64,000 bases of DNA, from the NCBI GenBank assembly GCA_045130875.1, contig JBGUQI010000022.1, forward strand, positions 215,795 through 279,794. Direction: 5' to 3'. Below, in pieces: positions 57,001-63,000 of this stretch (its first letter is position 1; every line of letters begins with the position of its first letter). The position numbers were made by a program. Source of the stretch: Bacilli bacterium. GTDB taxonomy: Bacteria > Bacillota_I > Bacilli_A > RFN20 > CAG-826.

Positions 57001-60000
57001 ACCATTAGACTTAGATGTCTTATTAGACAAACTAAGAGCAACATTGATTAAATAAGAAAAAAGCCAAGGAACTAAACCTTGGCTTTTAACTATCTAACGT
57101 TATTACTATAATTTCTATTTACACTTTTTGCTGTAAAATTGAAATAATCTTCATTTTAGCCACTTTTTTACTAAATTGTTTAGATAATTAACTATTATTT
57201 CTAATATAATCAATCAGTATTTTGATATTAGATTCTTCTTTTGATAACGAGGATAGCATTTCAATCATTTCATCATACCTAGTTGCAAACAATTCATAAT
57301 ATTGTCTTGGTTTGCTTTTGTGAGGATCGATGGGGTAGCCGTGTTTTATGAAAATGGTATCCATATCTGGAACAAAATAAATAGGTTCGATTAAATCGTC
57401 GTCACCCCACCACGTTCCTTTGAATAAAGATTTATCGATATATGCCTTGAGCATCTTATCTGTTGTTTCATCTTTATCCATAATAGTGAATATTTTATGA
57501 TTGATTATTTTTTTATTTGAAAGATGAATAGTTTGATCATTTTTCTTTATGTATTCTTTTTCGGTTGGATATTGAGATGATAAAAACTTATTAATGGTAT
57601 TGATATTAATTGATATCTTTCCATTTTTATCTGCTATGGGGTGTAGATTGCGTCTATTCTTATTTTGCATTTGCAAAACAATGTTATATTCACATTCGCC
57701 ATGACAAACAACACTACAAATAAGATAATTAATTTTTCTGTTCATTATCCTTCACGGCCTCAACGATATATTCCATAGAGAAGAAACCTTCTTGCGGAAC
57801 TCCCCCATATAATCCTTTTAGGTATTGAGAAACAAGATTTGTTCCAGCTTGGATTTTTCTGCCAAACTCATCTAATGAGTAACAAGATATTCTTTGGTCT
57901 GGATTTCTATCAAGTAGATAGACGCCATTTTTGATTGGATAATCAAGCAAAAGAGTATTATGTGTCGTAAAAATAAGTTGGCCTTTGATTGATTTTTCTA
58001 ATGATTTAATAATTGTTTTTAACAATATATCATTTATGCCATTATCAATTTCATCAATAATGATTGTCCCATTGTTGGTGGCGGCATAATAGAAATACTT
58101 AAACAATTTAAGCAACTTCTTGGTACCGGTAGATTCCTTTTCGTAAGGAATATCAACGCTATCACCAGTTGTTTTTTCAATAAAATGTAGTTTGTAAGTT
58201 CTCGTACTACCACTTCGGTTAGAAGTTATACGATAATCAACTCCACTAATGTTCGCATACAAAGAAGAATAAAACATTGTTAAAGCTTTTTTAGTCTTCA
58301 TCATTTGTCTTTCAAGAGAATCATCGTATGGTCCTTCAAAAACATCATCCAACAAATCATTAATATACTCATCATCAGGTTCATCTATATTTAAAAAAGA
58401 GAAAAATGATTCATTTTCTTTAGTCTTGAATATGAATGTTTTTTCAATAGAGTCCATAAATTCAATTACGGGTATGCCAACGCTTTTCTTAACTAAAGAA
58501 AAATCCACTTCCTTCACGACTGCATTTATACATGACAAAATTGTGTGTTTCCCAAAATACAAAGAGCAATAATCTAAAATGAGATTATTCAAATTATCAG
58601 ACATAAAAAAGTTTGGTTTTAATGTCAATTTCTTTTTGCCTGCATGAAAAATAATATCTCCGTTGCACATTAATTTTTCTTCAACGATTCTCTTGCTGCT
58701 AAAAATCATAGAATAGACAAATCTTTTGTCGTGAATGAATGACTCAAAAATTAGTGACATATTATTATCGGAACCTATTCTTTTATATTTTTCGATAGGT
58801 TCTTTTATGCCGAGAGAATTGGCATACTGGCTAAAAATACCATAAAAATTTTTTTGATCATGGTCTTTAGACAGATAATCATTTGCACGTTTCAATCTCT
58901 CAATTGAATAAAATGATTTAACCAACAAATCAAAAGCATCAACAATCGAAGTTTTTCCGATGCCATTTTCTCCGTAAATTAAGCAAAGTTTTTTAGCACG
59001 CTTTTCATTCTTGTTTTCACTAAAATCAACTTCAAAATGATCAAATGACTTAAAGTTTTCTAAAATCAATTTACTAAACATAATTAATGACCTCGAAGAT
59101 AATATATCTATTTTCTGGTCAAAAATCAATAAAAAGTCATTTATACCTAAATATTTGCTAATTTTTTTAGCATTTACTATTGTGTTGTGAGATAAGAATA
59201 GTTATTATAAAGATATGGAAAATAAAAAGTCCTGACAAATATTACTAAAACCATAGCACATCGCCATGCTATTGCATTTAGTAATCATAGCTATGTGGTG
59301 TGCGAATTCTATCGCCATCATTTTGATGGCTTTTTCTTTCCTTAGTGGAGACTCCACTATAAAAGTCTACTATAGGAGGGGAGAGTATGAACAAACAACG
59401 AGTTTTTATTTCTTTCGATTATGATCACGACAGTGATATTAAAGGGTCATTAGTTGCTCAAGCAAGAAATGATGATTCTCCTTTTGAAATTGTTGATATG
59501 TCTATAAAAGAAGCTATTGATTCAAACTGGAAATATTACGCTAGGCAAAGAATTAGAAGCTGCAATTGTGTTATTGTTTTATGTGGAAAATACACTAATA
59601 CAGCCAAAGGCGTTACCGCCGAATTAACAATTGCCCAAGAAGAACATGTTCCATATTTTTTGCTTTGTGGTAGAAACAACGAAACTGTTCAAAAACCAGT
59701 GAGTGCTAAAGCTTCTGACAAAATCTATAAATGGACATGGGATAATCTAAAACTATTACTGAAAGGATATAGATAACATGAAGGAAGAAATAATTTCAAT
59801 TTGGTCGTCATATACAGAACAAGCCAACGAACTAACAAACAAACGATTGACAATGAGCTCTTTCTTTTTTGCTATCTCTGCAGCTTTGCTTGGGTTATCA
59901 ATCCCTTATTTAGGACTTCCAAGTTTAATCATTTCCACTATTGGATTATTGCTAAGCATCATGTGGTGTTTAATGATTCTATCTTTTAAGTCATTAAATT

Positions 60001-63000
60001 CAGCCAAATTCGAAGTCATTGCAAAAATTGAAGAAAAAATGCCAATTAAGCCATACGAAGAAGAATGGCTAATAGCAAAGAAAAAAAGATACATCAAAAT
60101 AACAACCATAGAAACTATTATTGCTTTAGTTATAGTCCTTGGATTTATATCTTTGATTGTTATATCGATTTTAAAACTTGCTGGTGAAATGTAATAATAT
60201 GACAGCCTTTAAAGAAAAAGAGTGTTTATCACTCTTTTTTATTTATTCAGCATCTTATTTGCTATACCGATGAAGGCATAGTTATTAGCGCCTTTTACTA
60301 AGTTATATTCATCGCCTAGTTCTAAGGCTGTCTTGTATATATTTTTAAATATATTAGACATAATGTCTTTTAATCTATTATCCACTTTCTCAAAAGACCA
60401 AACTTCGCCTTTTTTGTTCTGTTCAATCTCTAATCCAGATACCGCTACTCCACCGGCATTAGAAGCTTTGCCTGGTGAATAGATAATTTTATTATTAATA
60501 AATTTATTTGCGGCTTCTAATGTGCATGGCATATTAGCGCCTTCAAAAACCCCAATACATCCATTATTAATTAATTTATCAGCATCTTTATCATCTAATT
60601 CAAATTGAGTGGCGCATGGAAATGCGACATCACATTTGATAGACCATATATCTTTAGTATTTAATATTTGTACTTCAGCATTAACTAAAGAAACATATTC
60701 TCTAATACGACCTCTTCTATCTTCTTTGAGCTCTCTTAATACATTAAAGTCAATACCATTAGGTACATATATAGTGTTATTAGAGTCATTCATAGCAATG
60801 ACTGTACCACCACACTCAACAACCTTTTTTAGACAATATAAGGCCACATTACCACTTCCGGAGATAATAACTCTCTTTCCCTTTAAATCTGTCTCTTTGT
60901 ATTGCTTTAAGGCCTCTAAAGCAAAATATGTAACACCATAACCAGTGGCCTCAGTTCTACATAAGGATCCACCCATATCTAATGGCTTTCCTGTTAAAGA
61001 ACAATCAGATTTTCCGGAATATAGTTTATAAGCTTCATAGAGATATCTTATTTCTCTACCACCTACACCTATATCACCTGCAGGTACATCTAAATCTACA
61101 CCTATATATGGATATAATTCTTTCATAAAGGCATAACAGAAGTTTTTGACTTCGTTATCACTTTTGCCTTTGGGATCAAAATCACTGCCTCCTTTAGCGC
61201 CACCCATAGGTAAGGTAGTTAAATAATTCTTAAATACTTGTTCAAACGCTAAAAACTTGAGGATTGATAAATTAACAGATGGATGAAATCTTAATCCACC
61301 TTTATAAACACCATTAACATTATTAAATTGGACACGATATCCTTTGTTTGTGTGTTCAAGGCCAGTATCATCTTTCCATTTAACATCAAAAATAATAACC
61401 CTATCAGGGGTAACAATCTTATCTAATATAGATTGATATTTTTCATTAGAAAGGACTCTATCATCTAATGATGACATCATCTCTTTGATGGCGGTTTGAA
61501 ACTCAGGTTCATTTTTATATTTAGTTAAATCAAGCGAATTATAGATGTTTTTATTCAATAATTTCATTATGAAATTATAAAAAGCTCTTGAATTCACATC
61601 TTTAGAATGGTTGGCGCGAGCAACTTTAATAGCGTTTTCAACTTTTGAATAACAAAAAGAATCGTCATTCAGCATTCTTTCAATCAAGTCTCTCGCCTCA
61701 ATAATACTGCTTGCGACAAAAGCGCAATCAAATCGTTTTAAGTATGAATAAACAAAACTAGTTTTAGGACAAACAACCAAAAAAGGCTTTCCTAATGATA
61801 AAACATCAGCAATTTTAGTTGTAAACGCATTTTGGGTATCCTTGATATAATAATCATCAAAACTTTCAACATGAATAACAATTTTTGAATTGACCAATGC
61901 CTTTATGTTGGCTTCATATGTTAATCTTCCTTTAAAGTCAACACAATGAAGATTGGAAAGATAATTGATTTGCTTCGGATCGTTAGAAAGAGAATAAATC
62001 ACCATTGGATTTTCCGTTTTTTCAAAAACAACTTCCGCTAATTGACCCAATACCTTATATCTTCCTACACCAATATTGCCAGAATATACAACACCCGTTC
62101 CTCGAATATCTGTAGGCATCAAATCCGATGAATTGTAGATGACAATGTTACAATGATTGGGATATTTTTTTAGATACAAATCCCGAAGCGAATCGGTTAA
62201 ATAAACATGACCAACCGCCTGCTTATATAGGCGGTTATAGCTTTTTTGTAATGTTTTAATAAAAACATTAAACAAAAGTGTTTTTCTATTTTTGGGTGAT
62301 AGATAATTCCATTTTTTAAAAGCATAGTCCTCTGAATTAAAAGTAATTAATTTCGTTTTGAGCTTTTTGGATAATTTGACGGCTATATCAATCAAAAAAT
62401 CTGAGTCACCACATTGCAAGCATATTATGTCAGGAGAAAACTTTTTTGAAACATCCAATAATTCATTAAATAATCTTTTATTTTTCCAAAGAAAGGACCT
62501 TGCCAAGCACTTAAATGGTGTTTTATTCTTTTTTGTAGCAACAGAACTATTCTCTTTATGTTCAGTAATAAATGACCCAAAAGGAAGGGAATAAAAAGGT
62601 TTAAGTAACTTATGTTCATCAATTTGATAAAAAGATGCAAGCGATGTTTCGGGATTATTTCCATTAATAAATATATTTAAAACATCTTTCTTTGAAAAAA
62701 GGCCCAACAAAGTCAATATGGTTCTACCATTTGAATTGCTTTTACTTAATGGATTGTTAGAAATTAATAAAACCTTCATGCTTATACCTTTAAATAGAAA
62801 TAGAATAATAATCAACAACTCTTGGGTGGGTAGTTATTTTACTACAGTATAATTCAAAATATTTTGAATTCATACTTTCTATAGAATACTTCAATTTAGC
62901 CTTTGCAGATATTTCATCTTTGTTAAAATTGCTATCAAGGGTTTTTTCGATAGCTTTAAAGAGATCTGCCATATTTGAATAGTCGACAAAAGTGCAATAC

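Follow-up and report, generated by a model that had tools for sequence, protein, structure and literature searches.

The stretch of DNA analyzed here (the window, 64,000 nucleotides of contig JBGUQI010000022.1 from the Bacilli bacterium assembly GCA_045130875.1, positions 215,795 to 279,794 of the forward strand) raises the question of what is done for the cell by two small genes that lie almost end to end, one encoding a TIR-like protein and the other a small membrane protein. A preliminary description of the window had read them as a TIR plus a small transmembrane effector, resembling variants of the Thoeris defense systems, and the analysis supports that reading as essentially right. We consider it probable that the pair is a two-gene Thoeris-like signaling module that acts by abortive infection. 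The elements of the pair, numbered from the first nucleotide of the window, are as follows.

59374–59379, + strand: Shine-Dalgarno-like AGGAGG, 7 nt 5′ of the ATG of open reading frame (ORF) A, by direct reading of the sequence
59387–59776, + strand: ORF A, the TIR gene (thsB-like), 129 aa, by ORF call and Pfam
59778–60194, + strand: ORF B, the 8xMP-family gene, 138 aa, by ORF call and Pfam
60214–60240, + strand: terminator-like hairpin (11-bp stem and trailing T run), situated 20 nt past the 8xMP stop codon, by consensus scan only

Both ORFs were recovered where they had been placed, spanning 59387–60194 and encoding 129 and 138 aa. ORF A begins with MNKQRVFISFDYDHDSD and ends with a TAA codon at 59774–59776, and the ATG of ORF B is at 59778. 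The start of the second gene is therefore 2 nt past the final base of that stop codon, as had been described, leaving a spacer of 1 nt, and given this spacer translational coupling of ORF B to ORF A is plausible. ORF B is cotranscribed with ORF A and probably also cotranslated, and the two-gene operon ends at the hairpin at 60214–60240, which faces a convergent glutamate dehydrogenase (GDH) gene. The leader between the neighboring AbiL-like gene and the TIR start is 257 nt long and contains another terminator-like hairpin, GCCATCA...TGATGGC with a T run after it (59314–59330, + strand), at a distance of about 55 nt from the TIR ATG; it could be an attenuator or a chance occurrence.

ORF A is a single-domain TIR protein that matches the Pfam family PF08937 (ThsB_TIR, formerly DUF1863) with 36.4 bits, above the cut-off of 21.2, in agreement with its original assignment to the DUF1863/ThsB group. 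The AlphaFold2 model of ORF A (predicted local distance difference test score, pLDDT, 87.8) has as its top Foldseek match in the PDB the Bacillus cereus TIR structure 8fz9 (E 5.5e-7, template modeling score 0.75), followed by 8wcf (EcThsB) and 9b7d (ThsB-Tad3), with the N-glycosidases DNPH1 and MilB at lower rank. PADLOC recognized one member of the pair, and that weakly: ORF A gave only weak ThsB and PDC-M50B matches, and ORF B matched none of the PADLOC effector models. No NCBIfam profile was matched by either protein. About 2,980 homologs are listed for ORF A, and its top match in the species-representative collection, at 74%, is from a metagenome-assembled genome (MAG) of Coprobacillus.

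The closest published point of reference for ORF A is type IV Thoeris, in which a ThsB TIR is combined with the caspase-like effector ThsE and the signal is the cyclic ADP-ribose (cADPR) isomer N7-cADPR (Rousset et al., bioRxiv 10.1101/2024.10.24.620036); in that system, metabolites of cells expressing EcTIR switch on a PsCaspase reporter. ORF A and PsTIR, the type IV TIR published from Pseudomonas sp. 1-7, share 34% identity (E 2e-18), and E79 of ORF A, within GVTAELTIAQEE, aligns to E79 of PsTIR, the residue whose mutation to glutamine (E79Q) results in loss of defense. Among 81 aligned members of the clade, E79 and about 30 further TIR positions are conserved at 95% or more. ORF A is a ThsB-type TIR, with a TIR fold and an intact candidate catalytic glutamate.

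On sequence similarity, ORF A belongs to the clade of type IV Thoeris TIRs, because, besides its resemblance to PsTIR, it is 66% identical to IMG 2701134260, which is entered as 'Caspase - Type IV' in cluster 2635319349 among the listed rows of Table S1 of Yirmiya et al. (bioRxiv 10.64898/2025.12.03.692087), and 70 to 72% identical to the TIRs of two loci (L027 and L028) that each directly adjoin a Peptidase_C14 gene. PsTIR is itself labeled 'Caspase - Type IV' in Table S1, where the published rows carry no cluster name, and it resembles the listed members of cluster 2635319349, a cluster first met, among the rows listed, in the caspase section of the table. Identity of ORF A to the EcTIR-type clade is only ~30% over 69 residues.

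The protein encoded by ORF B matches Pfam PF24838, the 'octameric membrane protein family (8xMP)', with 79.2 bits (cut-off 30), as do all 14 aligned relatives. It had been introduced as a small three-transmembrane (3-TM) protein that is almost entirely transmembrane. Hydropathy analysis bears out the three hydrophobic helices, at residues ~26–42, 47–70, and 108–132, but 'almost entirely' goes too far, as the protein also has an N-terminal helix, polar and ~25 residues long, and a loop of ~38 residues (70–108) that is rich in K/R. Because this loop contains 10 K/R, the positive-inside rule predicts that both the N terminus and the loop are cytoplasmic. The AlphaFold2 monomer model (pLDDT 85.8) contains helices at residues 3–41, 47–85, 94–102, and 110–134. 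A cluster of polar and aromatic residues is kept in both 8xMP subfamilies and consists of K/R22 (K22 in ORF B), R23, N74, K77, F78, E85, E96, W97, Y105, and E112; all of these are on the predicted cytoplasmic side, and the cluster is a candidate ligand site. No Macro, SLATT, or cNMP-binding domain, and no separate ligand-binding domain, was found in ORF B.

A search with the PF24838 profile yielded 3,830 cluster representatives at 50% identity (E ≤ 1e-3), nearly all of which are stand-alone proteins of 130–250 aa. The RefSeq label of the 8xMP partner gene is 'hypothetical protein', and we found no relevant literature on 8xMP or PF24838, neither of which is named in the Yirmiya et al. preprint or the other papers searched. 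Identity as the 'Effector 4TM' of the cyclic oligonucleotide-based antiphage signaling system (CBASS) was considered on account of a marginal PADLOC match by three of the 14 relatives (E 0.0026), and was judged too weak.

The association of the two genes was assessed in a TIR scan with one genome per species, which gave 80 loci encoding a TIR at 50–74% identity; effectors at these loci were called with a hidden Markov model (HMM) of the 8xMP family and with caspase queries. The phyla represented are Bacillota, Mycoplasmatota, Actinomycetota, Chloroflexota, Planctomycetota, and Verrucomicrobiota, together with bacteria of the candidate phyla radiation (CPR) and archaea (Nitrosopumilus and Methanomassiliicoccales). 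Beside the TIR gene there is only an 8xMP gene in 43 genomes, only a Peptidase_C14 gene in 31, both in two, and neither in four. At 33 of the 45 loci with 8xMP, its ORF is on the same strand as the TIR ORF and lies within 12 nt of it or overlaps it; at the other 12 it is 105–502 nt away, mostly past a second TIR gene. More divergent 8xMP proteins, with 60%, 46%, 39–40%, and 31% identity, each still adjoin a ThsB_TIR gene, with the gene order flipped at the 46%-identity locus and a caspase gene also present at the 31%-identity locus. The TIR-8xMP pairing is not due to chance, and within the PsTIR-like clade the caspase is no more frequent a partner than 8xMP, the pairing with 8xMP alone outnumbering type IV itself by 43 to 31 of the 80 genomes. 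A single-sequence search with ORF B had turned up only six relatives and so suggested a rare pairing, an impression overturned by the profile search and by the HMM applied to the TIR loci.

The two effector types alternate within the same TIR clade. A neighbor-joining tree of the TIRs contains at least nine switches of effector type, the nearest neighbor of the window TIR in the tree is caspase-linked, and among the 81 clade members no alignment column tells the 8xMP-linked TIRs from the caspase-linked TIRs. Some operons hold both effectors, each confirmed by Pfam, in the order caspase-TIR-TIR-8xMP at locus L035 and 8xMP-TIR-caspase at locus L099, and both are also found on a further contig, L192. 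The 8xMP protein and the caspase-like effector are evolutionarily interchangeable.

These findings also bear on the polarity of the pair. If it were reversed, the TIR would be a toxic, NAD+-depleting NADase and the 8xMP protein its sensor or anchor, responding, for example, to membrane perturbation at phage entry or lysis by releasing or activating the TIR. Tight translational coupling would fit the stoichiometric complex that such an arrangement implies, the 129-aa TIR lacks a separate sensor domain, and Yirmiya et al. allow for TIRs as NAD+-depleting effectors in unverified configurations. However, TIRs of the same clade, with no distinguishing residues, serve a cytosolic caspase-like effector as signal producers, and in L035 and L099 the 8xMP protein stands in parallel to that known effector. 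Furthermore, 8xMP accompanies two TIR clades, as expected of a receptor for a diffusible product and not of a specific protein partner. We regard reversed polarity as unlikely and retain the assignment of the TIR as signal producer and of 8xMP as effector.

Several of the related loci depart from a simple two-gene arrangement. Caspase-type loci of the clade (L027, L028, L032, L033, L035, L036, and L038) often have, directly downstream of the first TIR, a second TIR of another type (155–160 aa, TIR_2/PF13676), e.g., at L028:4387–4869, such that these 'type IV' operons consist of three genes, encoding caspase, TIR, and TIR. In the actinobacterial loci L072, L078, L079, L082, L086, L095, and L097 (~4400–5400), two tandem TIR paralogs are followed by 8xMP. 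MAGs of Izemoplasmatales and Acholeplasmataceae (L042:2303–3961 and L044:330–1989) encode an EcTIR-like TIR (139 aa) and a PsTIR-like TIR in tandem, followed by a 271-aa DUF6602 (PF20247) protein that may be a further effector class. In Rosettibacter primus (L045:2922–3968) and two CPR (Patescibacteria) genomes (L054:530–1576 and L058:2925–3971), 348-aa ORFs that resemble one another and have no Pfam match lie directly before the TIR-8xMP pair, overlapping it in L045 and L058; some TIR-8xMP systems may thus have a third component. The metagenome contig L192 (476–4821) encodes a 319-aa protein of no known family, a Peptidase_C14 protein, an 8xMP protein, and a protein with a classical TIR domain at its start and a length of at least 574 aa, an arrangement that brings together both effector types and a long TIR fusion protein. 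Operons with both effectors (L035, L099, and L192) gave rise to the idea that 8xMP is a gasdermin-like substrate of the caspase, which was rejected as a general explanation because 43 of the 80 genomes have 8xMP without a caspase.

The resemblance to Thoeris variants that was originally proposed is upheld by the conservation of the pairing across phyla and by its match to a putative configuration already cataloged. In December 2025, Yirmiya et al. (bioRxiv 10.64898/2025.12.03.692087) described 29 putative Thoeris configurations, with types V to XI validated, and their Table S1, in the rows listed, arranges Thoeris TIR domains, thousands in all, by cluster. One of the predicted configurations (Table S1 and Figure 1C) is designated '3TM'. 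In a metagenome scan with one '3TM'-labeled TIR, 76 of 80 loci have an 8xMP ORF directly upstream of the TIR, and the TIR partner on one of the scaffolds of Yirmiya et al., Ga0192243_10112 (L141), scores 104.6 bits against PF24838. Because of these matches, the '3TM' effector class is the Pfam 8xMP family.

The window pair shares with the '3TM' class a short single-domain ThsB_TIR and a ~140-aa protein with three TM helices from the same effector family. It differs in the TIR, since among the listed rows of Table S1 the '3TM' TIRs belong to clusters 2734565194 and 2556961318 ('FISHSW...', EcTIR-like), whereas the window TIR resembles the listed members of cluster 2635319349 ('FISFDYD...', PsTIR-like), and in gene order, which is 8xMP-TIR in their loci and TIR-8xMP in the window. 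Going by the clusters listed in the table, the window locus is the 8xMP effector family on the other type IV TIR clade, and so a cataloged but uncharacterized Thoeris configuration.

Compared with type IV Thoeris, the window system has a TIR of the same clade, the same two-gene operon structure, and an aligned catalytic E79, but its effector is a 3-TM protein and not a Peptidase_C14 protease; no Peptidase_C14 match was obtained among the ORFs scanned on both flanks of the pair, from 53143 to 63959. As the window effector is a membrane protein, membrane damage is expected instead of proteolysis. By analogy, the closest validated mechanistic counterpart of TIR-8xMP would be type V Thoeris, which combines ThsB with ThsF (DUF2270, PF10028) and uses the signal 3′cADPR; ThsF is a 3-TM protein modeled as a circular homo-oligomer with charged pockets between protomers (Yirmiya et al., bioRxiv 10.64898/2025.12.03.692087). 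Both systems have a small effector with three TM helices and no recognizable ligand-binding domain, but the effectors belong to different Pfam families, the TIRs to different clusters, and the signal is probably different. PF10028 was not matched by ORF B or 13 relatives even at E ≤ 1.

More distant parallels are found in type II Thoeris, in which a TIR is paired with a Macro-TM effector and the signal is histidine-ADP-ribose, and in the TM effectors of CBASS and of the pyrimidine cyclase-based antiphage system (Pycsar), i.e., 2TM/4TM, SLATT, and PycTM 'pJV1-spdB3 3TM'. All share with the system proposed here the logic of a nucleotide-derived signal that leads to a membrane-disrupting effector. 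Unlike the type II effector, ORF B has no Macro domain. The likeness to the 2TM effectors of CBASS and Pycsar, drawn in the preliminary description, stands as an analogy and goes no further, with ORF B unmatched in PADLOC and no gene for a cGAS/DncV-like nucleotidyltransferase or nucleotide cyclase adjoining the window pair among the ORFs scanned on both flanks.

In the mechanism that we favor, ORF A is proposed as a putative sensor and signal synthase. On phage infection, the TIR would, by homology, turn NAD+ into a cADPR isomer. The likeliest product is N7-cADPR, because validated members of the TIR clade make it, although we hold this specific identity as a possibility somewhat short of even. 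A signal common to both effectors is suggested because 8xMP accompanies TIRs of either clade, because type IV TIRs of both clades yield the caspase-activating N7-cADPR, and because some operons hold both effectors; Yirmiya et al. (bioRxiv 10.64898/2025.12.03.692087) use the same argument in reading two effectors in one operon as sharing one signal. The frequency of 8xMP in the PsTIR-like clade, where it is at least on a par with the caspase, likewise leads to the prediction of a shared signal.

The 138-aa 8xMP protein would receive this signal, acting as receptor and effector in one. It is pictured as a 3-TM inner-membrane protein that probably forms a ring-shaped homo-oligomer, with the octamer taken only from the Pfam family name. 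As the 8xMP protein has no separate ligand-binding domain, the ligand may be held by the conserved cytoplasmic cluster, probably between protomers. Once the ligand is bound, the membrane assembly would open or become disordered, leading to a collapse of membrane integrity, and death or arrest of the host would then halt phage replication. The signal generator would in this way stay the same, with 8xMP as its output module in place of the caspase-like ThsE. A more tentative and rather doubtful extension is that 8xMP proteins at large are widespread ligand-gated membrane effectors opened directly by N7-cADPR, forming a second receptor interchangeable with ThsE and sensing the ligand through the ~10-residue cytoplasmic cluster.

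Several points weigh against this interpretation. The case for the TIR-8xMP system is built on sequences and monomer models, and the '3TM' configuration is absent from the tested systems listed in Table S2 of Yirmiya et al. Searches of the PDB by sequence and by profile, and a Foldseek search with the 8xMP model, gave no meaningful match; with no similar structure among those solved, the mechanism of a pore or ring is an analogy, and the structural comparison of ORF B with other effectors is limited to helix topology. Among the listed rows of Table S1, the 8xMP-paired cluster 2734565194 also includes TIRs that make canonical cADPR, which leaves the signal uncertain. The 8xMP family is not exclusively coupled to TIRs, since two members, P0135 and P0134, have no TIR neighbor, with one of the contigs stopping at the 8xMP gene. 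Finally, the 140 ORFs examined around 8xMP-type loci repeatedly include components of type I and type II restriction-modification systems (methyltransferases and specificity subunits), but this is a raw recurrence without a background comparison.

The genomic settings of the pair bear on whether it serves defense at all. TIR-8xMP pairs are also found on plasmids and on predicted viral contigs, and one such plasmid pair, in Haematospirillum, is beside parA and amid MazEF, HicAB, BrnA, and RelE/ParE modules. This setting, the small size and tight coupling of the two genes, and their frequent horizontal spread onto plasmids are what would be seen if the pair were an addiction module similar to a toxin-antitoxin system, in which 8xMP is a holin-like membrane toxin restrained by the TIR, and the function is to stabilize a mobile element and not to defend. 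Toxin-antitoxin modules and defense systems colocalize in any case, and a simple antitoxin would have no need of a catalytic glutamate and ~30 further positions conserved at 95% or more across phyla. The same TIR also partners caspases interchangeably, and the gene order flips, whereas toxin-antitoxin pairs usually hold a fixed regulatory order. An addiction role for the pair is very unlikely.

Still less credible, to the point of being highly improbable, is a housekeeping role, in which the DUF1863 protein is an enzyme of nucleotide metabolism similar to nucleoside 2-deoxyribosyltransferases and 8xMP a small membrane transporter or channel. It would accommodate the lower-ranked resemblance of the TIR model to DNPH1 and MilB, and at least one 8xMP member (P0135) that is in a nondefense context. 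It is difficult to reconcile with a patchy distribution across phyla at 50–72% identity that extends to archaea and CPR bacteria, with the occurrence of pairs on plasmids and predicted viral contigs, or with restriction-modification and Abi-like neighbors. In addition, Yirmiya et al. (bioRxiv 10.64898/2025.12.03.692087) place the window-type TIR cluster among the defense-enriched TIR clusters. A Thoeris-like defense module remains the reading that we prefer.

If it is correct, the pair would be among the most compact signaling immune systems known, with a 129-aa synthase and a 138-aa receptor/effector specified by ~270 codons, and swapping one gene would turn one TIR signal to either proteolysis or membrane damage. 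It would also provide a small and tractable system in which to study the reading of a nucleotide signal by a 3-TM protein devoid of a sensor domain, and a concrete function for 8xMP, a Pfam family of thousands of proteins annotated 'hypothetical protein'. What is new here is the link between the 8xMP family and the '3TM' class of the Thoeris catalog, and the recognition of 8xMP as a frequent partner in the PsTIR-like clade. The system is compact and widespread, and to a specialist its existence will not be very surprising.

The pair is situated among the following neighboring features.

51590–57055, + strand: PNP_UDP_1 phosphorylase-like gene between the genes of two large EAL-domain proteins that are membrane-anchored (518 and 1042 aa)
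57188–59129, − strand: AbiLi-like module consisting of a 466-aa AAA_21/AAA_15 ATPase (PADLOC AbiLi, E 4.4e-46) and a 185-aa ORF
60239–62818, − strand: 859-aa ORF with a ~420-aa region without Pfam match fused in frame to glutamate dehydrogenase (ELFV_dehydrog_N and ELFV_dehydrog, residues 471–857)

The pair and the ATPase module had been assigned to a shared AT-rich islet, which does not hold, as the low GC content (0.30–0.33) is not confined to them and continues from ~57 kb through the remainder of the window. The 185-aa ORF overlaps the end of the ATPase gene by 17 nt and has no Pfam, PADLOC, or NCBIfam match. This divergent neighbor, the AbiL-like ATPase with the 185-aa ORF, is probably an independent two-gene defense system with an unclassified second component. 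The window pair is seen on several metagenome contigs, and AbiL-like neighbors are present too in two of the four shown (L001 and L003).

On the related contig L001, GDH has a 435-aa gene of its own, adjacent to an aminotransferase gene, and on L002 the product is at least 776 aa long, as in the window; the 859-aa ORF could be a true fusion or two genes without a stop codon between them. The EAL and PNP_UDP_1 block, directly upstream of the defense modules, is cyclic-di-GMP turnover machinery.

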